From Candidatus Krumholzibacteriia bacterium (GTDB lineage: Bacteria > Krumholzibacteriota > Krumholzibacteriia > Krumholzibacteriales > Krumholzibacteriaceae), in assembly GCA_963836185.1 (NCBI GenBank), contig CAWIIQ010000002.1:224001-288000 (forward strand): DNA of 64,000 nucleotides, written 5' to 3'. The notes under the pieces were generated by a model that saw only the letters and a program-made list of their open reading frames with translations, had not been told where the DNA came from and searched no databases. Below, piece after piece: positions 1 to 16,020 of this stretch (positions are counted from its first letter, which is position 1; each line of letters begins with the position of its first letter). The translations under genes and the position numbers were made by a program.

Positions 1-1547
1 GGAAAGACTTCACTCTCGCGAGAAACTGTCTGGTAAAGGCGCGTATGATCGCATCGGAGATCGCTCCTGATGGGGACCTCGCCGCTGAGGTAACGCGGAA
101 GATCGGTGAACTGGAGATAGTCGAGGGCAATATTCAAAAAGCGATGTACCGTCTTGAGGAGGCAGAGGGGTTAGCGAAGGGGCAGGATGCGCCGCTGGAA
201 CTGGGGCTTGTCTACCGGTCTATGGGAAAGGCCGAGACCGGCCGGGGAAATCTCGACACGGGAAAGATCCTTTTTAAGCGCTCGAAGGACCTGATAAGGA
301 AATCGGGAAGTACCTATGAGCTGGCCAGGACATGTCTCAAATATGCCGAGACCCTGATCTCGTCAAATGGAGCGGGACTGTCGCACGGTATTCCAGGAAA
401 GAAATACACAGATGAACCATGGAGCCTTCTCTGGGAAGCGCGGCACCTGTTCGCCGGGATGCACGCTCAGCACATGGTCGATCGTATCGATTGTCTGCTC
501 GGCAGGGAAGAGCGAGGCAGTACCACACATCCCCGGATCGATGAAACCGCCGTTGCCGGCTCCGGTATGATCGAGGTCGGATTTTCGCTCGATTACAAGG
601 TCTGTGACGGCCTTGTAGCAGTTTCGCCGGTCATGCAGGACGTTTGGGACAGGATCCAGTTTGCGGCCTCCTACAGAGGCACTGTTCTCGTGACTGGAGA
701 GACAGGCACAGGGAAAGAGCTTGTCGCCAGGCTGATCCACAATGCCAGTGACAGGGCCCAGGGTCCGTTTGTCGCGGTCAATTGCGCCGCGATACCTGAC
801 CATCTTTTCGAGAGTGAATTCTTTGGTCACAGGAAAGGGTCGTTTACCGGAGCAGTGATCGACCGTCGGGGCTTCTTCGAGGAGGCCAGCGGAGGAACGC
901 TTTTCCTCGATGAAGTAGGAGAGCTTTCCACACTGCACCAGGCCAAGCTTCTCAGGGTGCTGCAGGAGGGGAAGATCAGGCGGCTGGGAGAGAACATCGA
1001 ACACGAGGTCGATATAAAGCTCGTATCTGCCACGAACCAGGATCTCGGGAGTAAACTCGATGACTCATCGCTGAGAGAGGATTTCTTCTTCAGGATCAAC
1101 GCCGAAAGGATACATATCCCGCCATTGAGGGATCGCAGGGAGGATATAATCCCGTTGATAAGCTGGCGGCTCTGTGGAAATGGAAATGGCAATAACGGCA
1201 GGACGGTGCAGGTCGACCGTGATGTCGTCTCTCTCTTTCAGAAATATCACTGGCCCGGTAACGTCAGGGAGTTGATCTCGATCGCTGACAGGCTGAGCTG
1301 CTTTGCCAATGATTCTCCTATTACGATCGACATGCTGCCTGACAGGATGACGGGAGATTCAACGGTTCTGCCCGAATGGAATCTCCGCCAGTCCGGTGCC
1401 TGCGATCGTCAAAGGCTTGAGAGCGCGATGAGTATATGCAAGGGCAACAAGAGCGCAGCCGCACGCTGGCTCGGGATATCAAGAGGCAAGCTGTACAAGG
1501 AGCTTAAAAAGACAGGCCTGTACAGATTCTACCGCACCGCAACGTGA
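1..1547 (+). CDS. TPR-containing sigma54-dependent enhancer-binding protein (5'-truncated by window)
   Basis: Frame is open from the window start. Helical TPR-like N-terminal part, Walker A GETGTGKE, GSFTGA loop, Walker B LFLDEV, WPGNVREL, C-terminal Fis-type HTH (GNKSAAARWLGISRGKLY). Confidence 0.93.
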   Translation, partial: KDFTLARNCLVKARMIASEIAPDGDLAAEVTRKIGELEIVEGNIQKAMYRLEEAEGLAKGQDAPLELGLVYRSMGKAETGRGNLDTGKILFKRSKDLIRKSGSTYELARTCLKYAETLISSNGAGLSHGIPGKKYTDEPWSLLWEARHLFAGMHAQHMVDRIDCLLGREERGSTTHPRIDETAVAGSGMIEVGFSLDYKVCDGLVAVSPVMQDVWDRIQFAASYRGTVLVTGETGTGKELVARLIHNASDRAQGPFVAVNCAAIPDHLFESEFFGHRKGSFTGAVIDRRGFFEEASGGTLFLDEVGELSTLHQAKLLRVLQEGKIRRLGENIEHEVDIKLVSATNQDLGSKLDDSSLREDFFFRINAERIHIPPLRDRREDIIPLISWRLCGNGNGNNGRTVQVDRDVVSLFQKYHWPGNVRELISIADRLSCFANDSPITIDMLPDRMTGDSTVLPEWNLRQSGACDRQRLESAMSICKGNKSAAARWLGISRGKLYKELKKTGLYRFYRTAT

Positions 1548-2785: not shown

Positions 2786-3121
2786 GTGATGAAATCATCA
2801 AAACGGATCGTCTATTGTTACCTGTTCTGTTTTCTCCTGATAGTAACGGTCGATCTGCTGAGTTCCGGCGATATGTCCGGTGAAAGGATGTACCTTGTAC
2901 TCATGCCGCTTCTGGCTCTATCGCTCTTTCTGTTCAGCGACTTTACGCCAGAGGGGATCAAAAGGAGGATCAAAGGGTATCGCTGGTCGATAATGGTCCT
3001 GCTGATCGGTATCACGACGAGTCTATTTATAGACAAGACGTTGTCCGCTGGAGTGGTGATACTTGTGAGTTCGTTCACGGCACCGTTTCTACGTATAAGG
3101 AAGTATGCCGATCAGGATTAG
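2786..3121 (+). CDS. Small integral membrane protein (about 4 TM), putative immunity/partner protein
   Basis: Starts immediately after the upstream stop (TGAGTGATG); four hydrophobic stretches with basic ends. Confidence 0.6.
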   Translation: MMKSSKRIVYCYLFCFLLIVTVDLLSSGDMSGERMYLVLMPLLALSLFLFSDFTPEGIKRRIKGYRWSIMVLLIGITTSLFIDKTLSAGVVILVSSFTAPFLRIRKYADQD

Positions 3122-6100
3122 GACTTGAGGCTTTTTACAAAGTCAAAGACCTGCGTTCTCAGCGGCACCTGGAGGTAGGAAGATATCTGTTCAGAATTGT
3201 CGAAAGCCTCGGTTATCTCCTTGAGGGTATTGATAGATTCCCTGCTGTATTTGACCGAGTTGGAGATATCGCCGGCCTGCTTGTAAAGCCGCGCAAGCTC
3301 AAACTGGATCTGCCATGTCCACTCCCTGGTCCCGAATTCTCTGGAGACATCGATAGCCTCCAGCATCGGGGCCAGGGATTTCGAATTATCGTGAACCTCA
3401 CTCAAAGCGATGACGTAACTGTACAGTGGCTTGAGATACCCGCAATTGATCTCCCTGAATATCTTCGCCGCCTGCCTGGCGTAATCACGAGCTATCTCAT
3501 GGTCCCCCATGTGTCGATGTGTGAGGGACAGCTTTAGTAATGCTTCGAGCAAGTCGTCCTTGGCGTTGGCTCCTTTGAAAATGTCGGAAGAAATAAGGGC
3601 ATGATTTATAGCAGTCTTGAGTTCAAGATTGTAGTAGGCTGAATCGGCATGTCTGAGCTCCAAATGTCCCAAGCCAATCTTATTGTTGTATTTATGAATT
3701 GATTCTTTTGATGTTTCTGTGAATTCCTTGTATTTGTCATGATATAGACTCCCCATAAGCAAGAATGCTCGAGCTCCTGTTGACGGAAATGTTGGGGAGA
3801 TCGCCGATACATTATACTTAGCTATATATTGAGATCCTTCAAATATTAAGGCTATTGCTTCAGAGAAATTAGCTATGGATATATGTCCCAAGGCCTTGTT
3901 TGCGAGAAAAACAATCAAGTGAGAATAGGCTTGGTATATCTTTGCCAAATGGCACGCCTTGTCCAGTATGCCAATCTGATCGTTGAATTTACCTTGAATA
4001 TAGTTCAGTCCGGCAAGCCCGCTCATGTGGTCAATGCGGCTAATTTCATCGCAACTGAGTTTGTCTAAAGCTATCATTTTCCCTAAGACTGTGTGGGCAG
4101 TATCATATTCTCCTGTGTAGAATGCTTTAACGTATTTCGAAAAGTAAATTCTATCTGTTGTTCTTAGATCACTTTCGTCAAGAAGGTCGTCTAACTCAAT
4201 ATCGATTGCATTGTACTTTTCTGCATCACCGGAGAATGTGTAATAATACATTGCGTTAGAAATCGCCCTGATATACTGAGCTGGAAGGATATCTTTGGCA
4301 GTTGTGGCAGCTGATTCAAGGAATGAGACATCGTTCAATACTATTCCTAGCGAAATGAGCGCTTCTGATTCGATGATTGCGTTTGAATTATTTCGAGCAA
4401 TATCTAGAGCCCTGTTATAAAAATTAACCGCCTTTTTCGAATTGCCTTTGTAGTATTGTTCGATATATCCCAATCTATTGTAGTACTCTGCTTTAGATTC
4501 TTCATTAGGGGCCATATTAAGCAGATAAGTGTAATTCTCAATGGAATCATCAACATATCCGAGAGTTAGTTCTAAAGGGGCAAGTTTAGAAAGAACAGTG
4601 CTTCTGATTTCTGGTAAATCTTGTGTATCAATCAAACTTTTAAGCGATAGTAATAGGTTAAAGGCTGAATAATATTCGTGCTGTGCCATGTGTTCATCAT
4701 GTGCCTTGATTGTATAACTATATGACTGTTCAATATCTCTGGCTTGAATGAAATGATTAGCTATCATTGGGAAGTTCTCTGGGTCGACCTGAATGGAATA
4801 GTATGCTAGATCTCTGTGAATCGAAGTGGATTGGTCATCTTGTGTGTTTCGAATGAGATAATTTTTAATAATTGGAGATAATAAACGACTTAGATTATTT
4901 TTCGATTCAATCAAGTCTGCTCGCTCAAGGCTATCAATTACAGGTGCAATATCAAAAGACATAAAAGTATTGAGTATATTTGTTTCTATAGGATTGTTAT
5001 GGGCGGAAAGTAACTGTAGGACATATAACTCATCTGTGCTTAATCCAGCAACTATTTGATCTGCCAGATCATCAAAGATCTCTGCGGATTGGTAGGTGCT
5101 TAATTTTTTGTGATTAACAAAATAGGCCCTGCCTGTCTTTGAAATAATGTCGTTTAGTATTAAGAAATTGTAGTAATCGATTATGTATAGTGGAATCCCA
5201 TCTGTAAGCAATAGAATGTCACTATATTCTTTTTTGCTGAATATGTCGGATTCAAACAGTGCAGTAGAAAGTGTTTTTAGCTCGGCATTGTTGAATCCTC
5301 GAATAGGCAAAGAGTAGGCGTTATTGGCAAGAGAGGCTAACTGTGTGTCAAGTGCGTCGCTGTGAGGGTAATCTGTGGCATGGGAAAGAATAACTTTTAC
5401 ATCAGCATTTAGATATTCGATTTCATTGATGAGATGAGTAAGGAATTTCAATGAATCAAGTCCACGACGCTCTATATTAGAAATTGTAATCAGAACTGGC
5501 TGATCTTTTGAAAGGGTATAAATATATTCGATGATGTTGCTATACAATACTCCGAGACTATCTAAATCTCTAGAGTCCTCGTATTTGTTAATGTTGGCTA
5601 CCAATTTGCCATGCTGAACAGAAAGCTTTTTGCGTGAAGTTAATGATAGGTTTGTGGCAATAGAATCGATAATGTTTTGAAGGGTTAGTCTTTCCGGTTG
5701 CGGCTCAATAAAGCTTATAACTTTGTATTTCAAGAGTTGAGCTTTGCTGATCGCTTTTATTAGCAGTGATTGTTTGCCCATCCCAATAGGGCCTTCTAAA
5801 ATAATCGTCCTCTCATGCAAGTCAGCACCCTCAATGAACTGTTCGATTGCTGAGTCAACGCCCTCGCGCAATACATGCTTAGTACTATTGAAATTGTATG
5901 GTATTGACGAGGGTGTGATGATTGAAGCCAGATTCTGTATTGCTTGCGAGGGTGTGGCTGGGCGAAGTGCGATGGATGGATTGGAAAGTCTGACAATATA
6001 CGAGGCAAGATTTCTTGGATGTTCAATCCCAGAATTCTGGAATAGTTGGCTCAGTGCTTCGTATGCAGAACTTAAATAATCATCCGTGAGGTTTGGTGCT

Positions 6101-6702
6101 AGTGGTGTTTCATATTTAAGCAGGCTTTCCATAAGTGTGTGCCCTAGTGCATAAAGGTCACTGCTGGGTGAATAATTTCTGGAAGAGATGATTTCTGGGG
6201 CTAAAAACCTGGGCGTTCCAAATAGTTTGTCGTTGTCTGTAAGTGCGATTGTTGATAATCCAAAATCAACTAAAACAGGACATAAATTACCATCGCCTGC
6301 TATAAGAACATTCTCTGGTTTTATATCTCCATGGATAATATTTTCCCTATTGAGGTAATGAAGTGCTTCGAGAATACCTGTGATTATAGCGGAAGTGGAT
6401 AACACGCGATCGGGAGATTCAAAGAAATCGTTTAGATTGGGGCCATTAATAAAATCCATGGTGAAGTATGAATGCCCCGATTCGCTCTGGCCAAAATCGT
6501 AAACACGAATCAGATTGGGATGATTTAGTGGCGTAAGAGTTGAGAATTCGTTTTCAATAGAAGCAGTTAGTGCTGGTTCAATATGATTCAGGATTTTTAG
6601 GGCAATATTCTTATTGGCCTGAGAGTCAAATGCCTTGAATACTGTCCCAATGCCACCAGATCCTATTAGAGGAGAAATTGCTGTATCTTGAAGGAAATCC
6701 AT
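3118..6702 (-). CDS. Ser/Thr protein kinase - AAA/STAND-like NTPase - TPR protein
   Basis: Hanks kinase motifs GSGGIGTV, IALK, HGDIKPEN, DFG, GTPRFLAPE, SDLYALG; Walker A-like GPIGMGKQS; long helical TPR-like C-terminal half; mostly low GC. Confidence 0.88.
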   Translation of the reverse strand: MDFLQDTAISPLIGSGGIGTVFKAFDSQANKNIALKILNHIEPALTASIENEFSTLTPLNHPNLIRVYDFGQSESGHSYFTMDFINGPNLNDFFESPDRVLSTSAIITGILEALHYLNRENIIHGDIKPENVLIAGDGNLCPVLVDFGLSTIALTDNDKLFGTPRFLAPEIISSRNYSPSSDLYALGHTLMESLLKYETPLAPNLTDDYLSSAYEALSQLFQNSGIEHPRNLASYIVRLSNPSIALRPATPSQAIQNLASIITPSSIPYNFNSTKHVLREGVDSAIEQFIEGADLHERTIILEGPIGMGKQSLLIKAISKAQLLKYKVISFIEPQPERLTLQNIIDSIATNLSLTSRKKLSVQHGKLVANINKYEDSRDLDSLGVLYSNIIEYIYTLSKDQPVLITISNIERRGLDSLKFLTHLINEIEYLNADVKVILSHATDYPHSDALDTQLASLANNAYSLPIRGFNNAELKTLSTALFESDIFSKKEYSDILLLTDGIPLYIIDYYNFLILNDIISKTGRAYFVNHKKLSTYQSAEIFDDLADQIVAGLSTDELYVLQLLSAHNNPIETNILNTFMSFDIAPVIDSLERADLIESKNNLSRLLSPIIKNYLIRNTQDDQSTSIHRDLAYYSIQVDPENFPMIANHFIQARDIEQSYSYTIKAHDEHMAQHEYYSAFNLLLSLKSLIDTQDLPEIRSTVLSKLAPLELTLGYVDDSIENYTYLLNMAPNEESKAEYYNRLGYIEQYYKGNSKKAVNFYNRALDIARNNSNAIIESEALISLGIVLNDVSFLESAATTAKDILPAQYIRAISNAMYYYTFSGDAEKYNAIDIELDDLLDESDLRTTDRIYFSKYVKAFYTGEYDTAHTVLGKMIALDKLSCDEISRIDHMSGLAGLNYIQGKFNDQIGILDKACHLAKIYQAYSHLIVFLANKALGHISIANFSEAIALIFEGSQYIAKYNVSAISPTFPSTGARAFLLMGSLYHDKYKEFTETSKESIHKYNNKIGLGHLELRHADSAYYNLELKTAINHALISSDIFKGANAKDDLLEALLKLSLTHRHMGDHEIARDYARQAAKIFREINCGYLKPLYSYVIALSEVHDNSKSLAPMLEAIDVSREFGTREWTWQIQFELARLYKQAGDISNSVKYSRESINTLKEITEAFDNSEQISSYLQVPLRTQVFDFVKSLKS

Positions 6703-6753
6703 ATCTGTCAGTCATGGAGTAGCGATTCTAGTTTGTATGGGAGAAAAATCAAT

Positions 6754-6784
6754 AAAAAAACCCTCTCCGGGGAGAGGGTTTTTT
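6754..6784. terminator. Bidirectional intrinsic terminator
   Basis: AAAAAAA-CCCTCTCC-GG-GGAGAGGG-TTTTTT. Confidence 0.85.
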
Positions 6785-6807
6785 AAGGTTCAAGTTACGA
6801 GTTAATA

Positions 6808-7356
6808 TTATCCGTTTGGCCAAATCCCATAACCACTGAAATGTTTAAGTTCAGTAACTATGTCCCCATTCTCTACGCGTCCACCGACATCCTGCCAGAT
6901 TCCTGCATCTTCATTGTTCCACAGAGTCCTATAGGAAGTTGCGTTCGAATCGACCTTTGCCAGTGGCAGCGTCATGATGACGTTCTTGTTAAACTCGATG
7001 CCGTGGGGGCCCAGCTCTACCATCGCTTCAGGGTACCTGGGCATGTCGATGGTGATCTCGGTGTCCTCATTGAGGGCTCCGGGCGGGAAGTACAAACTGA
7101 CGTAGCCGTTTGTCACGGTCCCGCCCGTTTCGGCTGAAATCACCATGGAGACGGAGGTTGAGGAGGTCAGTAACATATCTCGACCAGAAGAACCCGCGGA
7201 GGTGGAGAGAACCTGGACGAAAACGGGGTTCTCAACACCGGGCGTAGTGTCGTCCTGTGAGGGGGATACAGGAGAGTATCCACAGCCCATGGCAGCCAGT
7301 ACACTGAGGAAGGTTGAAACGGTGAGGAATTTGTGGGCTATGGTTCGTCCTGACAT
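6808..7356 (-). CDS. ZU5-domain lipoprotein with C-terminal HFS motif
   Basis: AGGAGGT RBS before ATG 7356; lipobox AMGC; ZU5-like pattern (GGTV..VSLYFPPGAL..ELGPHGIEFNKNVIMTLP); ends ELKHFSGYGIWPNG. Confidence 0.72.
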   Translation of the reverse strand: MSGRTIAHKFLTVSTFLSVLAAMGCGYSPVSPSQDDTTPGVENPVFVQVLSTSAGSSGRDMLLTSSTSVSMVISAETGGTVTNGYVSLYFPPGALNEDTEITIDMPRYPEAMVELGPHGIEFNKNVIMTLPLAKVDSNATSYRTLWNNEDAGIWQDVGGRVENGDIVTELKHFSGYGIWPNG

Positions 7357-7416
7357 TTCTCCCACCTCCTTGGGGTCTTTGGTGAACAACTTCTTTCGTT
7401 TCTCACCCTGGTATAA

Positions 7417-7432
7417 GGCAACGCAAGTGCCA
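7417..7432 (-). promoter_or_regulatory. Sigma54 (-24/-12) promoter of the ZU5 lipoprotein gene
   Basis: Minus strand TGGCACTTGCGTTGCC matches TGGCAC-N5-TTGC exactly, 60 bp upstream of the start and just downstream of a bEBP gene. Confidence 0.85.
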
Positions 7433-7704: not shown

Positions 7705-9165
7705 TCAGTCTGTTACAGAAACCGGCTCAAATTCGCCGGTTTTGAGTTTTTTCTTAAGCTCCTGACCGTCTATTCCGTGTTTCTTCATCTTGTATCTCAA
7801 GGTTCCTCGTTCTACCTCAAGAAGGTGGGCTGCGCGGGTTATATTTCCCCCTGTCCTGACGAGCGTCTCGAGGATCACGGCCTCTTCGACCTGGTCGAGA
7901 CTGACACCCTCTGATGGAATATCGATCCTCAGAGTTCCGTTTTCTTTCTTAACCTGGCAGGTTGTTTCTTCCGTTCTGGTCTCGGTGGCTATGGGCAAGT
8001 CAGCTGAACGGATCATTCCTGTCGTGTTCAGAAGAACCGCGCGCTCGATGAGATTGATCAACTCCCGGATGTTTCCAGGCCATGAATACTGCTCGAGAAG
8101 GGTGAACGCATCCTCTGTGAGGGAGATGTCGCCTTTGTTGAGGCGGCGGGAGAACTTTTCTGTGTATGTCTCGGCTATAGGGCGGATATCTTCCTTGCGG
8201 CTGCGAAGGGGCGGAATCACGATCTCGACAACGTTTAGCCTGTAATAGAGATCGGCCCTGAACCGCTTTGTATCCACGTCATCCTTCAAATTCCTGTTTG
8301 TAGCGGAGATCACCCTGACATCTACAGGAAGGAACTGTGTGCCGCTCACTCTCCTTATAGTCCTCGAATCGAGGAACTTGAGGAGCTTTGCCTGGAGGTT
8401 GAAGTCGATCTCGCCTACTTCATCAAGGAAGATCGATCCTCCATTTGCGACCTCGAACAGCCCCATCTTTCTTTCCTTGGCGTCTGTGAAGGCTCCCTTC
8501 TCATATCCGAAGAACTCACTTTCAAGAAGCTTGGAAGGGATCGCGGCGCAGTTTACCTCTATGAGGGGCCCTGAAGATCGAGCGCTTATCTGATGGATAG
8601 CGCTGGCGAGCACTCCTTTGCCGGTGCCGTTTTCGCCCGTGATCATGACCGATGTGCAATCGCTCTTTCCTACCTTGATCGCCAGGGCGATGATTTCCTG
8701 CATGGCCTCACTGACACCTATGATGTCATCGAACCCTTCTGGTTTCGACGTTCTTTCCCTTATGGCTTCATCCCGTTTACGTTTCCCGAGACCGCTGGCG
8801 ATCTGGCTGAGGATAAGGTGGAGGTCCCTGCTCTCGTACGGCATATGGAGCTGGTGTCTTGCGCCCAGCCTCAAGCTGACGTTGTCCTCGTTCCTCAGTC
8901 CCTCCGGTATAAGAAGGATGATCTGGGAAGTGGAATTGTGTCTGTGCCAGTCGATCAGGTTGTCGATATCAGGTGAGATGTCCCGGGTTCCGGCTTCATT
9001 CGTGCCGGCTAATATAAGGACCTGTGGAGCCGATTTCTCTCTTTCCAGAATGAAATCGTTTACGCTGGAGAACTTAGATACTTTCCATCCTGACTCGGCA
9101 CAGTCGTTCTCTACTGTCCCGAGGATATCTGAATGGGAGCATATTATGTCTAGTTCAAGTGACAT
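7705..9165 (-). CDS. NtrC-like sigma54 activator with degenerate (pseudo-)receiver domain
   Basis: GENGTGKG, GAFTDA, IFLDEV, WPGNIREL, Fis HTH. The N-terminal receiver-sized domain lacks the acidic pocket, phospho-Asp and conserved Lys. Confidence 0.92.
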   Translation of the reverse strand: MSLELDIICSHSDILGTVENDCAESGWKVSKFSSVNDFILEREKSAPQVLILAGTNEAGTRDISPDIDNLIDWHRHNSTSQIILLIPEGLRNEDNVSLRLGARHQLHMPYESRDLHLILSQIASGLGKRKRDEAIRERTSKPEGFDDIIGVSEAMQEIIALAIKVGKSDCTSVMITGENGTGKGVLASAIHQISARSSGPLIEVNCAAIPSKLLESEFFGYEKGAFTDAKERKMGLFEVANGGSIFLDEVGEIDFNLQAKLLKFLDSRTIRRVSGTQFLPVDVRVISATNRNLKDDVDTKRFRADLYYRLNVVEIVIPPLRSRKEDIRPIAETYTEKFSRRLNKGDISLTEDAFTLLEQYSWPGNIRELINLIERAVLLNTTGMIRSADLPIATETRTEETTCQVKKENGTLRIDIPSEGVSLDQVEEAVILETLVRTGGNITRAAHLLEVERGTLRYKMKKHGIDGQELKKKLKTGEFEPVSVTD

Positions 9166-9393: not shown

Positions 9394-11307
9394 ATGCGTG
9401 ATTTGGGAAAGATGTTCCCGCGGATGACTGGATACGCCCTGTTGCTTGCGATTGCTGCATTCGGCCTTTCAGGCTGCAGTGATGATGCGGAGGGTGGTGG
9501 AGAGCCTGTCACCATAAGTTCCGTCACTCCTTCTGAAGCGAGTGCCGGGGATATGGTTACGATAGAAGGTAATGGCTTCAGCGCCGATCCGGCGAAGAAT
9601 GTTGTCAGCTTCTCGGTGGCCGGCGTTTCAAGCTCCTCGGCGAGCAGGGATGCCATTCCTGTCGAAGCGACAAGTACGAGCCTGAGGGTCGAAGTCCCCG
9701 AAGGTTCGTTCACGGGTGATGTGGCGGTAAGATCGCCGTTTCCTATCAGCAGTGGTTCATTCGACTTTACGCCGCCCGGTGTTCCTTCAAACTCTCTGGA
9801 CTTCATGGTCAGGCTGCTCCGCGGTGATGTGGCGAAGATCTACTATGCTGCTTCCGACTACGACCTGGCTGTCAAGACAGGGCTGTCCGGCGAGGAGTAC
9901 ATCCTGATACTCTTCGACAGCGCCACCCCCCCGGACCTGAACATGACTTTCAATTACACGGTCAATAACGATACGCCGTGTTCATCGGCTCCCGCTGCCG
10001 TTGGACCGGATGCCGGTGTTGATAGCGGCGACCAGCCGGACAAGACCGATCCCATGCTTCTGGCGGGGGCTGGAGAGATCACCAGGTCGTTCGAGCGCAA
10101 GAAGTGGGAGGAAGCTCTCGGCCTTCTTCGCGGCGGACCTGTTGATATCGATGTCGACAATACCAGGCCGGCACCATCGCGGTCTTCCTCGCTGGAACCT
10201 CAGGAGCGGCAGTTTTACGTGTTCAGTAATTTCAGTGGAAGCACGGTCAACCCTGACGATTTCACACTCGTTACAGCCGACCTGAAATACGAGGGAACGC
10301 ACACCCTGCTTTACCTCGACCAGACTACACACAGTACCTGCATCAATGACTCAGAGGCGGAGGCCCTTGGCCTGGAGTTCGAGAACAGTATCTATCCGAC
10401 AAATACCTCGAGTTTCGGATCCGAGCCCGATATTAATGGTGACGGCAAGGTCGTCATCCTCCTGACCCCGCTGGTTAACGAACTGACTCCTGATGGCGGC
10501 GCCTCGGCCGGTTATATTGCCGGATTCTTCATGCCGGGCGACCTTCTGCCCGCTTATGTCCCGTCCGGAGCGTCGAACGGGATGGAGATCTACTACTCGA
10601 TGGTACCTGATCCTGGCGGTGAATACGGGAACGTGTACCCCAAGGAGCCGGCGCTCGAGTCGATCAAGGGTGTTACCGCGCACGAGTTCCAGCACATGAT
10701 AATGTTCAATTACCGGGTCCTGATATTCGGGAGCGGTTACAGCGGTGCATACATGGCCGAACTCTGGGTGGATGAGGGACTCGCTCATATTGCCGAGGAT
10801 CTCAACGATCACGACCAGAGTAATATTAACCGCGCGAACCTCTTCCTGAACGATCCTGGTAACGTAACCCTGATCCAGGGGGGAGATGCCCTCACGGAGA
10901 GGGGAGCCAGTTTTCTTTTCTTCAGGTACCTCGGTGACCGGTTCGGCGTAGGAGTCTATTGGGATATCGTTCAGACAAGGAAGACAGGTATCGCCAACAT
11001 AGAAGAGGTCACCGGCTACAGCTTCAAGGAACTGTTTACCGACTGGGCTGCCACTATGTATTTTGAGAGCATGGAGGTGACGCCCGTCGATCCGAAGTAT
11101 TCTTATTCCTCATTTGATATGGCGGCGGTTTTTGAGCCGCTAAGGGTCAGGCAGACCAATATCTGCGGGAGCCCTTACAACGGAGACGTGAAATCGTACG
11201 GGCCGGATTTCCTGCGTCTGGAATTCTCCGGTTCTGACGTCTACGACATAAATATTTCAAGTGCGTTGTTCGGGAGTATGAATGCGGCTCTTATCAGGAC
11301 CCAGTGA
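9394..11307 (+). CDS. Lipoprotein with IPT/TIG domain and M30 (hyicolysin)-like zinc metalloprotease
   Basis: Lipobox LSGC; IPT pattern ISSVTPSEASAGDMVTIEGNGFS; DINGDGKVVIL; HEFQH followed by WVDEGLA. The true start may be a downstream Met. Confidence 0.8.
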   Translation: MRDLGKMFPRMTGYALLLAIAAFGLSGCSDDAEGGGEPVTISSVTPSEASAGDMVTIEGNGFSADPAKNVVSFSVAGVSSSSASRDAIPVEATSTSLRVEVPEGSFTGDVAVRSPFPISSGSFDFTPPGVPSNSLDFMVRLLRGDVAKIYYAASDYDLAVKTGLSGEEYILILFDSATPPDLNMTFNYTVNNDTPCSSAPAAVGPDAGVDSGDQPDKTDPMLLAGAGEITRSFERKKWEEALGLLRGGPVDIDVDNTRPAPSRSSSLEPQERQFYVFSNFSGSTVNPDDFTLVTADLKYEGTHTLLYLDQTTHSTCINDSEAEALGLEFENSIYPTNTSSFGSEPDINGDGKVVILLTPLVNELTPDGGASAGYIAGFFMPGDLLPAYVPSGASNGMEIYYSMVPDPGGEYGNVYPKEPALESIKGVTAHEFQHMIMFNYRVLIFGSGYSGAYMAELWVDEGLAHIAEDLNDHDQSNINRANLFLNDPGNVTLIQGGDALTERGASFLFFRYLGDRFGVGVYWDIVQTRKTGIANIEEVTGYSFKELFTDWAATMYFESMEVTPVDPKYSYSSFDMAAVFEPLRVRQTNICGSPYNGDVKSYGPDFLRLEFSGSDVYDINISSALFGSMNAALIRTQ

Positions 11308-11838: not shown

Positions 11839-12253
11839 TCACTGCTGATGTGAGTCAGCCCGGGCCTGATCCCGTCTCTCCTTGACCTCTTCGATGTTCT
11901 TGTAGCGGATGAAGCGGGACATCTCGAGCTGGGTGAAGAACATCGCGAGGCGGTCGTTGCACGGCTCGATCTTCTCACCGAACTTCTCCTTGAGGATGAC
12001 TGGCGATCTCTCCGATGTCGCGCGTGCCGTCGATGTTCTCCCAGACGGTCGCTCCGATATCGTCGAGCGCGATCTTGAAATAGGGGCTTTTCAGACGAGA
12101 GCCGACCATCTTTTTCATTAAGCCGGTCTTGAACCTCGGGCCGAGAATGGTGACGATGCCTTCATCGTCCCTTGTCGACTTCACGGTCTGCTCGGGGATG
12201 AGCTCGAGAAGGTTGATGTCTGGACTGGTCGTCTTTTTCTTTCTTCCGAACAT
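11839..12253 (-). CDS. PqqD-family (RRE-like) protein, frameshifted near 12000
   Basis: IALDDIGATVWENIDGTRDIGEIA continues in another frame as ILKEKFGEKIEPCNDRLAMFFTQLEMSRFI, stop at 11839. Confidence 0.75.
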
Positions 12254-12326: not shown

Positions 12327-14312
12327 CTATTTTGACGCGCTCTTCGCGGGAATCCTGATCAGGATCCATCCGAGAAGGGCGAATACAAGAAGGGCCAGCC
12401 ACGGGTTGCCGCCCTCGATGATCGAGGGAAGGATCGCCTCGCCACCACCGGCGACGACAGTCGCGGCAATGATGATACCCATCAGCGCCTGGCCCGCGAT
12501 GAGGCCCGACGCGAGGAGTATGCCGGTATTGTCGGCCTTCTCCTTGTTGAGGTTGCGCTTCTTGATGTATCCGTCGGCGAACCACTTGATGATCCCGCCG
12601 ATGAAGATCGCGGAGGTCGTGTGGAACGGAAGGTACATGCCGACTGCGATCAGCATCGGCGAAGGAGCGCCGATGAGGATCAGGGCGATCGCGAAGATCG
12701 CTCCCATGATCACGAGCGGCCAGGCCATCTGTCCGGTGATGATACCCTGAGCCAGCATCGCCATCAGTCCGGCCTGCGGCGCGGGAAGGTCGGTTCCGCC
12801 GATACCTCCCGTTGAGGCGTACCCCGTGTGGAGCAGCTGGAGGACCAGGGCCATGACGAACGCGGCCGCGACCACTCCTATGATGCAGCCGAGTTCCATA
12901 GCCCTCGGCGTACCGCCGAGGATATGTCCGGCCTTGAGATCCTGTATGATGTCGCCCGCCACTCCGCTCGAGCAGCAGACAACGGCCGCGACTCCGAGCA
13001 CCGCGGCTACGCCGAACGCTCCCTTCACTCCGACGGCCACCATCAATATCGCCGCCACGATCAATGTAGATAGCGTGAGCCCGGAGATCGGGTTGTTGCT
13101 CGATCCGATCGTTCCTACGAGGAAACCGGCGACCGCGGCGAAGAGGAATCCCGCGATCGTCATTACGATCGCCGAGACAGCCGCTCCGATGATGCTGCCG
13201 CTGAAGTACCAGTAGAGGAAGAAGATCGGTATGACGAGCGCTATGATCCCGATCAGCGTGATCGAGTAGGGGATGTCCTTGTCGATGCGGCTCGTTTCAC
13301 CTTCGGTCTTGACCTTGCCGATCTGGCCGAGGTCCTTGAAGGCCCTCGCTACGCCTGCGCTGAGTGATTTGCGCATCTTGAAGAGTGTATAGAACGCTCC
13401 GACGAGCATTGCGCCTACGGCGAGAGGACGGACCTGCGAGTTCCATACGGCGCCGGTCGTCTCCATCCAGTCGGTGCCCGGGCCGAAGGTGCCGGCGATG
13501 AAGATAAAGAGCGGGGTCATCATCATGTGGCCGAAGACGCCGCCGGCGAATACGATCGCCGCGAGCCTCGGGCCGATGATGTAGCCGACGCCGAGCATCG
13601 CGGGCGAGGCCTCGGGCGACTCGATGAAGATGCCGCCTGTCGGGTTCGACCCGGCCGTTATCGCCTTCAGGTCACTCGTCATCAGCTGGAAGTTCTTTAC
13701 CGTCGGCAGCATCCAGAAATGCTTGACGTAACCCTGGATGAGCTGGAGGCCGAAGCTGTTCTTCAGCATTTCGAGAAGGGCCGCAACGCCTATCATCCCG
13801 AATACGTACTTCGCGCCTGTCGCTCCGCCCTGGCCCGCCTTCACGATCTCTGAGCAGGCGACGCTCTCCGGGAAGGGGAGCGACTTGTCGTCGATCAGGA
13901 CGCGCCTGAGGAAGATCACGAAGAACACGCCGAGGATGCCGCCTACCAGCATGAGGAAGGTGCTTTCCCAGTAGTGGATGTTCTCCCAGATAGGGGCGCC
14001 GGTCTCAGGATTCTTGGCGATCAGGAACGCGGGGATCGTGAAGATCGCTCCGGCGACGACGGCCTCTCCGACAGCAGCCGTGGTACGGCACGTGTTCTCC
14101 TCGAGGATCGATCCCTTGAGCGGTTTGAGCACCGCCATGGCCATCACGGCCGCCGGGAACGTGGCCGCCACAGTCATGCCCGCCACGAGGCCGAGGTAGG
14201 CGTTCGCCGCGCCGAGGACGATCGAGAGTATCGCGCCGAACACGATCGCCGGCAGCGTAAACTCCTTCATCTTCGTTTCAGCGGACACATATGGTTTGAA
14301 CTCTTCGGCCAT
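12327..14312 (-). CDS. OPT family oligopeptide transporter
   Basis: AANAYLGLVAGMTV, LPFPESVAC, GSSNNPISG, QDLKAGHILGGTP, LPAPQAGLM; many TM helices. Confidence 0.95.
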   Translation of the reverse strand: MAEEFKPYVSAETKMKEFTLPAIVFGAILSIVLGAANAYLGLVAGMTVAATFPAAVMAMAVLKPLKGSILEENTCRTTAAVGEAVVAGAIFTIPAFLIAKNPETGAPIWENIHYWESTFLMLVGGILGVFFVIFLRRVLIDDKSLPFPESVACSEIVKAGQGGATGAKYVFGMIGVAALLEMLKNSFGLQLIQGYVKHFWMLPTVKNFQLMTSDLKAITAGSNPTGGIFIESPEASPAMLGVGYIIGPRLAAIVFAGGVFGHMMMTPLFIFIAGTFGPGTDWMETTGAVWNSQVRPLAVGAMLVGAFYTLFKMRKSLSAGVARAFKDLGQIGKVKTEGETSRIDKDIPYSITLIGIIALVIPIFFLYWYFSGSIIGAAVSAIVMTIAGFLFAAVAGFLVGTIGSSNNPISGLTLSTLIVAAILMVAVGVKGAFGVAAVLGVAAVVCCSSGVAGDIIQDLKAGHILGGTPRAMELGCIIGVVAAAFVMALVLQLLHTGYASTGGIGGTDLPAPQAGLMAMLAQGIITGQMAWPLVIMGAIFAIALILIGAPSPMLIAVGMYLPFHTTSAIFIGGIIKWFADGYIKKRNLNKEKADNTGILLASGLIAGQALMGIIIAATVVAGGGEAILPSIIEGGNPWLALLVFALLGWILIRIPAKSASK

Positions 14313-14589: not shown

Positions 14590-16020
14590 TTGAAGAACGC
14601 GATAACCGAATACCTCGGGATTCTCTGCGGCGCTTGCGGAGCGTCGACTGCCCGCCTGCGTTTTTATTCCGGTGAGACAGGCTCGCAAGAACCGATAGTG
14701 GAGATTTGTGGAGGTGTTGACGCAGTTCAGGGCATGGAACTGGCGCTGAGGGAATCGGCCGCGTTTGTCGAGGGTTTCGGGGTCTGGCGGATGGACCGCA
14801 GCAGTTACGGCAGCGAGTGGCGGCTCGAACGGCGGCTCGACGGCATGTCTGTCTCACTCGACCTTGAGATGAACGAGAGCTCGCCATCGTTTGTCTCCAG
14901 GAGGCTGTCGGCCGCCGGGGAACTGCTCGGTCTGCTCGAACAGCTGATACCACTGGTCGAGTATCCGGTATCAGGCCCTGAGACATCCGGAGGGGCGGCA
15001 GCCGGAGGGAGCCGCCCTTTCGACCCTCCGATCATCGGGATCTCTCCCTCGATCGTCTCTCTCAGGGATGATGTCAGGAAGGTAGCGGCCGGGGAGATCC
15101 CCGTTCTTGTATGCGGGGAGAGTGGGACGGGGAAGGAACTCGTCGCGCGGAACATCCATTCGCTCGGGCCGAGAGAAGGCGGACCGTTCATCGCGGTCAA
15201 CTGCCTCGAGATGCCGGAAGGCCTTTTGCAGGGTGAACTGTTTGGAAGCGTCAGAGGTGCCTATACGGGAGCTGACCGTGACCGAGAGGGCCTGATCGAG
15301 GCGTCCGGGGGAGGGATCTTCTTTCTCGACGAGATTGGAGAGCTTCCCATGCATCTCCAGGCGGCGCTTCTTCGCGTCCTGCAGGAAAAGGAGGTCCGCA
15401 GGCTCGGAGAGGGCAGGAGCAGGAAGGTCGATGTCCGGTTCATCTTCGCGACCAATCGTGATCTCGAGGAACTCGTCCGTTCGGGAAGCTTCAGGGAGGA
15501 CCTCTATTTCAGATTGAACGCCGTGAAACTTTATATCCCGCCCCTGAGAGCGAGAAGCGAGGATATTCCGGTCCTGGCAGCGAGGTTTCTCGGTGAATCG
15601 TCCCGCCGGATGAGCGGCTGTTCGATGTCGATCACTGCCGGAGCCCTGTCGAGGCTCGTCGGCCACGTGTGGCCGGGGAATGTACGCGAGATGCGAAACG
15701 AGATCGAAAGGGCTGTGACGATGAATCCCGGCGCCAGGAGGATCACCGCTTCGATGCTCGAGATCCCGGAGAAGCGAAAGGGGATCCTGCCCGTCAACGA
15801 TTCAGGTTTTAAGGCGGCAACGATGCCCGAAGCTGTATTGGCGCTCGAACGGAAGATGATCGTAAGGGCGCTTGAGGGATTCGGCGGGAACAGGACTCGT
15901 ACGGCGAAGGCCCTGGGGATCACCCGCCAGGGCCTTCTGAAGAAACTCAAGAGAATGTGTATCGATCCGGATATATTCCGTGACAATCGATCTATCTCAG
16001 TAGAACAGCCTTCCGCGTGA
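14590..16020 (+). CDS. Sigma54-dependent Fis-family activator
   Basis: GESGTGKE, GAYTGA, FFLDEIGE, WPGNVREM, HTH GNRTRTAKALGITRQGL; TTG start uncertain. Confidence 0.9.
   Translation: MKNAITEYLGILCGACGASTARLRFYSGETGSQEPIVEICGGVDAVQGMELALRESAAFVEGFGVWRMDRSSYGSEWRLERRLDGMSVSLDLEMNESSPSFVSRRLSAAGELLGLLEQLIPLVEYPVSGPETSGGAAAGGSRPFDPPIIGISPSIVSLRDDVRKVAAGEIPVLVCGESGTGKELVARNIHSLGPREGGPFIAVNCLEMPEGLLQGELFGSVRGAYTGADRDREGLIEASGGGIFFLDEIGELPMHLQAALLRVLQEKEVRRLGEGRSRKVDVRFIFATNRDLEELVRSGSFREDLYFRLNAVKLYIPPLRARSEDIPVLAARFLGESSRRMSGCSMSITAGALSRLVGHVWPGNVREMRNEIERAVTMNPGARRITASMLEIPEKRKGILPVNDSGFKAATMPEAVLALERKMIVRALEGFGGNRTRTAKALGITRQGLLKKLKRMCIDPDIFRDNRSISVEQPSA

Follow-up and report, generated by a model that had tools for sequence, protein, structure and literature searches.

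A polymorphic cassette joins a ZU5 lipoprotein with a predicted self-released peptide tail to an adjacent kinase-STAND-TPR gene in Krumholzibacteriota

We analyzed a 64,000-nucleotide stretch of a Candidatus Krumholzibacteriia contig (hereafter the 64-kb window), in which a minus-strand gene encodes a 182-residue lipoprotein with a ZU5 domain and a very short C-terminal tail (Table 1). Each of the elements named here by a first-pass annotation (sigma54 box, ribosome-binding site, lipobox, HFS motif, tail SGYGIWPNG and terminator) was found on the minus strand, while its overall span of 6808..7432 stood only at the lower end, which is the stop of the coding sequence, as position 7432 belongs to the promoter and the coding sequence starts at 7356. 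A longer reading frame starting at a TTG codon (7440) was dropped in favor of the ATG at 7356, because it overlaps the promoter and because the ribosome-binding site marks the ATG. After HFS the protein continues with GYGIWPNG and then stops, giving a terminal nonapeptide with a computed monoisotopic mass of 949.43 Da. Comparison with four public sequencing runs, in the form of scattered short contigs, yielded one contig spanning 6655-6863 with 3 differing letters, and all listed one-base gaps lie outside the tail codons.

Table 1 Features of the locus, in window coordinates
Feature	Position	Strand	Basis or remark
TPR-containing sigma54 activator, 3' part	45..1547	+	full frame 837 aa, starts outside window
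Hanks kinase-STAND-TPR protein, cytoplasmic, candidate receptor	3118..6715	-	GC 0.40
Polymorphic low-GC cassette: ZU5 3' end, terminator/promoter, most of kinase gene	3450..6950	.	identity profile
Sigma70-like promoter TTGATT-16-TAGAAT	6725..6752	-	directly behind terminator
Intrinsic terminator 3' of lipoprotein gene	6755..6784	-	stem
ZU5 lipoprotein gene, 182 aa, predicted peptide precursor	6808..7356	-	ORF, Pfam, homologs, fold searches
Tail nonapeptide SGYGIWPNG	6811..6837	-	S-x-Y-G fixed, last five residues hypervariable
HFS motif (CAT-TTC-AGT), predicted cut F173/S174	6835..6843	-	92/92 complete homologs; NLRP1 register
Signal peptide and lipobox ending at Cys25	7282..7356	-	pattern and conservation
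Ribosome-binding site AGGAGGT	7364..7370	-	sequence; 7 nt ahead of ATG 7356
Sigma54 -24/-12 box TGGCAC-N5-TTGC	7418..7432	-	exact match; kept in 43/75 homologous loci
Sigma54 enhancer-binding protein (AAA+, HTH)	7705..9165	-	directly upstream; synteny
Lipoprotein, TIG domain and HExxH metallopeptidase-like region	9394..11307	+	syntenic
OPT-family oligopeptide transporter, candidate importer	12327..14312	-	TIGR00733 above cut-off

The sigma54 box is the sole exact match in the window, and taken on its own the motif is weak (2 matches vs. 2.5 expected in the window when one mismatch is allowed, and 13 strict matches vs. about 8 expected genome-wide). Its support comes instead from conservation: in 43 of 75 homologous genes a strict box precedes the Cys codon of the lipobox by 138-204 nt, compared with 50 of 3000 random windows. 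The genome encodes an RpoN-box protein and about 20 enhancer-binding proteins, and around the locus itself at least five sigma54 activator genes are clustered within about 23 kb, including those at 14590-16020 (+), 45-1547 (+) and G000:C2:217616-222202, with another strict sigma54 box at C2:222295. The export signal of the precursor is of the lipoprotein type both by a Prosite-type pattern and by conservation, with the lipobox residues G24-C25 invariant in 64/64 aligned homologs. Behind the gene, 40 of 43 loci have a GC run and then a T run.

About 100 bp separate the lipoprotein gene from the gene for the Hanks kinase-STAND-TPR protein, whose open frame (3118-6702) encodes 1194 residues. The start that resembles those of homologs, ATG 6715, is out of frame by one base (offset near 6670), which is probably an assembly error, given that one base, at 6669, is missing from a public contig; an in-frame ATG remains at 6702. 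Within the protein, the kinase motifs are intact, the STAND module has a Walker A of the form GK[K/R/Q] and a degenerate Walker B, Pfam TPR_12 scores above cut-off, and in the structural model helical repeats take up about residues 610-1193 (about 580 residues). The top fold match is a STAND-TPR structure (6mfv), no transmembrane segment is predicted (maximum hydropathy 1.45), and the best 25 of 34 PADLOC matches fall within residues 4-316, essentially the kinase domain. ATG 6715 sits 9 nt past the -10 box of the sigma70-like promoter, and this pattern of a promoter behind the terminator with an ATG few bases past the -10 recurs in 32 of 43 loci, suggesting that the kinase mRNA is constitutive and leaderless beside an inducible precursor gene.

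The wider arrangement in the lineage runs from an OPT transporter through a small ORF, two lipoproteins, a sigma54 activator and the ZU5 lipoprotein to the kinase-AAA-TPR gene, often followed by a TPR-bearing sigma54 activator. The enhancer-binding protein directly upstream (7705..9165), whose N-terminal region is as large as a receiver domain but gave no Pfam match to one, is a candidate activator of the lipoprotein promoter, and the TPR-containing activator at 45..1547 is a candidate second TPR reader. The OPT gene is present in 15 of 21 fetched regions with the window's arrangement and in none of 19 others, and the genome carries four OPT genes.

Two further parts of the neighborhood drew our attention. 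Convergent with the kinase gene, a plus-strand pair encodes a lipoprotein (2021-2785) whose C-terminal ~55 residues are Cys-rich, hydrophobic and bacteriocin-like, resembling halocin C8, and a hydrophobic 111-aa protein (2786-3121); neither matched a Pfam or NCBIfam family, the pair is present in 3 of 40 fetched regions, and it is possibly a toxin-immunity output of the locus. The small minus-strand ORF after the OPT gene (11975-12253), conserved in 19 of 40 fetched regions, encodes 92 residues compared with about 120-150 in its homologs, which it matches over the first 85 residues only, possibly reflecting a second indel. An initial label for this ORF, PqqD-like, was abandoned, as Pfam and NCBIfam gave no match.

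Named homologs of the ZU5 lipoprotein come mainly from Candidatus Krumholzibacteriota. HFS followed by a tail of 7-14 residues ends 92 of 96 close homologs (the other 4 are without such an end), and HFS is invariant in all 92 complete homologs, which carry 86 different tails between them in a database clustered at 90%, a setting that favors tail diversity. A profile search returned 732 representatives at E 1e-10; among the matches listed, 147 distant representatives were new, and in 132 of these the protein stops no more than 25 residues past the motif, with a lipobox in 107 of the 132. The window genome holds a single short-tail copy, as well as a long-cargo relative (G000:C1:809237-810934, minus strand), whose 565-aa frame has a lipoprotein-like start, a ZU5-like domain carrying HFT and then about 340 further residues. 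ZU5 matches occur in 33 of the 42 genomes of the bacterial family, so that the locus is fixed rather than patchy.

The tails themselves are both constrained and variable. Nine-residue tails make up 76 of 138, the S-x-Y-G start (which resembles the Nup96 N-terminus) is near-invariant, and position 7 is P in 44 of 68 tails and position 9 is G in 41 of 68. Tails differ between near-identical proteins, and among the window's 22 closest kin the last four residues are 34% identical compared with 80% for the body. Near-identical last-five words also recur between divergent backbones, 64 times vs. 19 under column shuffle, in a count whose pairs are not independent. Among 133 distant representatives, 62 end in [RK]xGW (the GRAGW class, selected by its tail), with mean body identity of 37% and last-four identity of 89%, and of the few members of its look-alike clusters in the Atlas that have a phylum assigned, most are Gemmatimonadota. 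Retention of the GRAGW tail at 37% body identity argues that the conserved free C-terminus of this class is read by something. The idea of the tail as a neutral leftover was dropped in view of the length constraint, the recurring words and the GRAGW class.

The proposed ZU5-like core was borne out both by Pfam, where the ZU5 family is matched at 27.8 bits (cut-off 21), and by fold searches, which return ZU5. The AlphaFold model, built from 64 sequences, is confident over residues 71-170 and poor over 1-64 and 180-182, and its last assigned strand covers residues 165-172. The top fold match is the ankyrin-B ZU5 domain (VIA; Z 10.8, rmsd 3.0, 110 aligned), followed by ZO-1, UNC5B, GAIN domains (Z 6-7) and the NLRP1 FIIND (Z 5.4-6); Foldseek gave a ZU5 match at E 7e-4, and a PDB sequence search gave weak ZU5 matches (best E 0.0025). 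No NCBIfam or PADLOC family matched the lipoprotein, and assignment to the polymorphic toxin ZU5 domains (PMC3482391) was discarded, as no RHS or toxin domain is attached.

The best fold matches (ankyrin, ZO-1 and UNC5B) are not known to self-cleave. The end of the NLRP1 chain, residue 1212, falls opposite model residue 173, and the NLRP1 mutants F1212A and S1213A are cleavage-dead (PMC7483925), which places F173/S174 at a known scissile position. Bacterial MAIN domains likewise cut between F and S of HFS according to a recent preprint (10.64898/2026.05.12.724683). We therefore consider self-cleavage of the lipoprotein at F173/S174 likely, and an N-O acyl shift there after export would be the probable chemistry.

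Departure of the tail from the domain is a separate step that we judge fairly probable; of the tail, S-x-Y-G alone sits at the last-strand position. The alternative is that the tail stays in place as the last strand with its C-terminus displayed, or that the emptied groove binds a partner strand, in either case with a reader in the envelope and no diffusible peptide. The near-invariant S-x-Y-G fits a retained tail, as do the MAIN/GAIN cleavage products, which stay associated, co-purify and are released only by SDS or 95 C (10.64898/2026.05.12.724683). Precedent for a groove comes from Nup98, whose autoproteolytic domain binds Nup96 or Nup88 through its site (PMC11148069) and whose function needs tail removal (PMC4483485), and from the ZO-1 ZU5 domain, whose structure was solved with a partner peptide bound; this domain aligns to model residue 173. 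However, the adjacent kinase is predicted to lack a transmembrane segment, no conserved membrane transducer was seen beside the gene in the fetched regions, and a discarded tail would not hold GRAGW over 37% body identity, so that we regard both forms of a tethered or groove-based system as unlikely.

The candidate soluble readers are the TPR proteins beside the gene. The suggestion that such proteins are its neighbors agreed with our counts, with a kinase/TPR gene within 1.2 kb in 36 of the 40 loci that have at least 1.5 kb on both flanks (drawn from 84 distinct short-tail loci), compared with 7 of 176 lipobox ORFs of the window genome; the adjacency profiles were derived from these same loci, and kin among them are not independent. 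Of the four misses, two adjoin TPR-CHAT genes, one adjoins a CHAT gene, and one is the second member of a tandem pair. Tails compared among homologs proved variable and tightly linked to TPR and sigma54 activator (bEBP) genes.

Partners fall into several types (kinase-STAND-TPR, TPR-HD-GYP, TPR-CHAT and, in L086, a lone TPR protein), with TPRs common to all. Kinase-STAND-TPR partners can be tandem, convergent or divergent to the lipoprotein gene, TPR-HD-GYP partners pair with the tails SRYALSD and SRYALAD, and TPR-CHAT partners pair with tails starting in SRW, with the exception of L141, which has a kinase. Tail and partner classes track ZU5 clades and hence represent few independent events. 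Within a single genome, G173, three lipoproteins with three tails each have their own kinase gene alongside. Individual arrangements include two tandem ZU5 lipoproteins (SRYALSD and SRYALAD) behind a TPR-HD-GYP gene at L126:8708-10240 and SRW-tail lipoproteins convergent with CHAT caspase-like genes at L127, L129, L131, L132 and L142; several SRW/CHAT loci adjoin sigma54-activator-like genes with weak AAA scores.

The main feature of the locus, which was absent from the first-pass annotation, is that the tail and the kinase-STAND-TPR gene form one polymorphic cassette, extending in Krumholzibacteriota over the last ~50 ZU5 codons and about 90% of the kinase gene. DNA identity to loci L004 and L036 reaches 91-96% in the central 5' part of the ZU5 gene, drops from about position 6900, lies at about 47-68% over most of the kinase gene and returns to 81-91% once past about 3450; the flanks are mostly at 75-96%. 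Along the ZU5 gene, synonymous divergence among nine close loci (L038 being left out as a duplicate) goes up from 0.05 to 0.76. In the kinase it is 0.73-0.83 over residues 12-1080 and 0.49 in the last 114 residues, compared with 0.28-0.58 for flanking genes. The receptor diverges over its whole length and not in the TPRs alone, kinase GC is below that of the upstream activator in 26/26 loci, and among 22 kin, distances over ZU5 residues 1-130 fail to predict those over residues 131-171 or the tail (Mantel -0.05). L003 and L036, a pair picked after the fact, share a tail with four synonymous codon differences and have differing flanks, and despite the common tail their receptors are 57% identical in the kinase and 47% in the AAA region. 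On comparison of these sequences, the cassette is best described as a set of old alleles exchanged as a block, in an agr-like layout. Assemblies often break in the ZU5 gene or a few hundred bases after it (L002, L005, L006, L009, L013, L014, L016, L018, L026 and L027), a pattern to be expected when one sample contains several cassette alleles.

Given the predicted fold, the HFS site nine residues from the end and the sharing of one highly variable block by tail and kinase gene among close relatives, a likely role for the tail is that of a peptide signal specific to the strain, with the kinase as its predicted reader. This block also invites a different explanation, namely that the kinase-STAND-TPR protein senses something else (e.g., phage proteins, like Avs) and that the linked tail varies by hitchhiking under weak constraint. 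Saturated synonymous divergence over the cassette, its low GC and the STAND-TPR fold with 6mfv as top match would all suit such a sensor. A search for positive selection by pN/pS on the tail showed none (0.87, near saturation and below 1), so that much of the tail variation could be hitchhiking. Nor was co-variation found between tail and receptor across all receptor regions with the ZU5 body held constant (partial Mantel r -0.20 to 0.12, none significant; n = 32, 15 and 12), at saturated divergence, and L004 and L017, with near-identical tails, have TPRs (residues 640-1090) at the background level of 24-25% identity. Against this explanation, the pairing outlasts inversion, duplication and swap of partner family, the locus is fixed in the bacterial family, PADLOC matches are confined essentially to the kinase domain, tail words recur, and tail pN (0.59) exceeds that of the kinase (0.25-0.35) and of the rest of the block (0.12-0.35). 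We therefore consider hitchhiking quite improbable.

Peptide quorum sensing with cytoplasmic TPR receptors is known from Gram-positive Firmicutes, where separate maturation proteases are needed. The reading we favor for the present locus, which we regard as evenly poised between right and wrong, is that of a self-processed peptide that is imported, read by the adjacent TPR kinase and coupled to sigma54 feedback. An N-O acyl shift would cut F173/S174 once the lipoprotein is exported, the nine-residue tail would leave the domain, and the peptide would be imported, possibly via the syntenic OPT transporter. It would then bind the TPRs of the kinase-STAND-TPR protein, made constitutively from its sigma70-like leaderless transcript, and kinase output to a sigma54 activator would raise the precursor promoter in a quorum- or kin-sensing loop. 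Tail-plus-receptor alleles would be pherotypes, held by balancing selection and exchanged by recombination. Import by OPT is disfavored by the absence of the gene from 6 of 21 regions of the window's arrangement and from all 19 others, and we count against the favored reading that a diderm host presents an additional outer membrane for the peptide to cross. A predicted complex between TPR residues 610-1194 and residues 153-182 of the lipoprotein scored 0.02 and was counted neither way. A cell-autonomous gauge of export or envelope integrity, in which the same cell re-imports the peptide or senses mis-sorted precursor and in which tail variation insulates paralogous circuits, would suit a lipid anchor and an outer membrane that should keep the peptide periplasmic, as well as the several pairs with different tails in G173 and G009, but is similarly improbable, as the window genome has one short-tail copy and paralog insulation thus cannot explain allele diversity among close kin.

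The imported-peptide reading combines parts of several known systems. Like the MAIN proteins (B. subtilis YfkN; Brogan and Rudner, 10.64898/2026.05.12.724683), the lipoprotein has a signal peptide, a secreted GAIN/ZU5 beta-sandwich and HFS; MAIN proteins, however, average 158 kDa, are C-terminally anchored and shed N-terminal cargo, whereas the lipoprotein has 182 residues, an N-terminal lipid anchor, no cargo domain and a 9-residue C-terminal product. The terms lipoprotein, ZU5, quorum and peptide signal do not occur in the main text of that preprint. Eukaryotic autoproteases (NLRP1/CARD8 FIIND, Nup98 APD, PIDD and aGPCR GAIN; PMC7483925, PMC4483485, PMC11148069 and PMC3482391) share the fold and cut register, yet in them the part C-terminal to the cut is a large domain or a tethered agonist, whereas here the domain is nearly the whole protein.

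With the RRNPP systems (Rap-Phr, PlcR-PapR and NprR-NprX), as set out in PMC10075063, the locus has in common a precursor predicted to be exported, a C-terminal stretch of 4-10 residues that would be the signal, an adjacent cytoplasmic TPR gene and a need for import. The receptor has TPRs and its gene adjoins that of the propeptide, and the lipoprotein tag counts as an export signal at the relaxed level only (PMC10075063). RRNPP propeptides, however, have 10-100 residues and receptors 250-500 (PMC10075063), compared with a precursor of 182 residues with its own predicted protease fold and a receptor of about 1200 residues with kinase and STAND modules. The locus further differs in its diderm host, its sigma54 output and a nearby importer of the OPT rather than Opp type.

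The agr hypervariable region covers 3' agrB, agrD and 5' agrC, so that there too conserved flanks enclose a variable block made up of the processing gene's 3' part, the peptide and a portion of the receptor (PMC3673130); agr has as its own a separate AgrB peptidase, a cyclic peptide, a membrane histidine kinase and demonstrated cognate specificity. STAND-TPR sensors (PDB 6mfv; Avs, PMC13581612) share with the neighbor gene the effector-STAND-TPR architecture and fast evolution, and differ from it in that the neighbor gene has non-canonical Walker motifs, a fixed locus with a lipoprotein partner and no defence-family match past the effector; ZU5 and lipoprotein go unmentioned in the available portion of the Avs paper. 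Our literature search found no description of the system, although the 15,000 homologs in the supplement of the MAIN preprint may include such proteins.

Beyond this locus, we offer a tentative generalization that may well fail, in which a ZU5/GAIN lipoprotein clips off a peptide of 6-17 residues that is read by cytoplasmic TPR proteins with interchangeable outputs (STAND kinase, c-di-GMP phosphodiesterase or caspase-like CHAT), as a widespread form of diderm signaling, and in which the Krumholzibacteriota peptide and NLR-like receptor form a self/non-self allelic series. If true, diderm phyla would hold a parallel peptide system built on a ZU5/GAIN autoprotease, with hundreds of divergent members, and cytoplasmic TPR kinases, HD-GYP enzymes and CHAT peptidases, which form large orphan classes, would gain candidate ligands. 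Such a system would set a precedent in bacteria for the logic of tethered agonists and NLR ligands and be a first pherotype system with a STAND receptor. A GAIN-type last strand could then act as a free signal. The Krumholzibacteriota alleles offer a ready matrix of cognate and non-cognate peptide-receptor pairs, in which specificity is testable in vitro.
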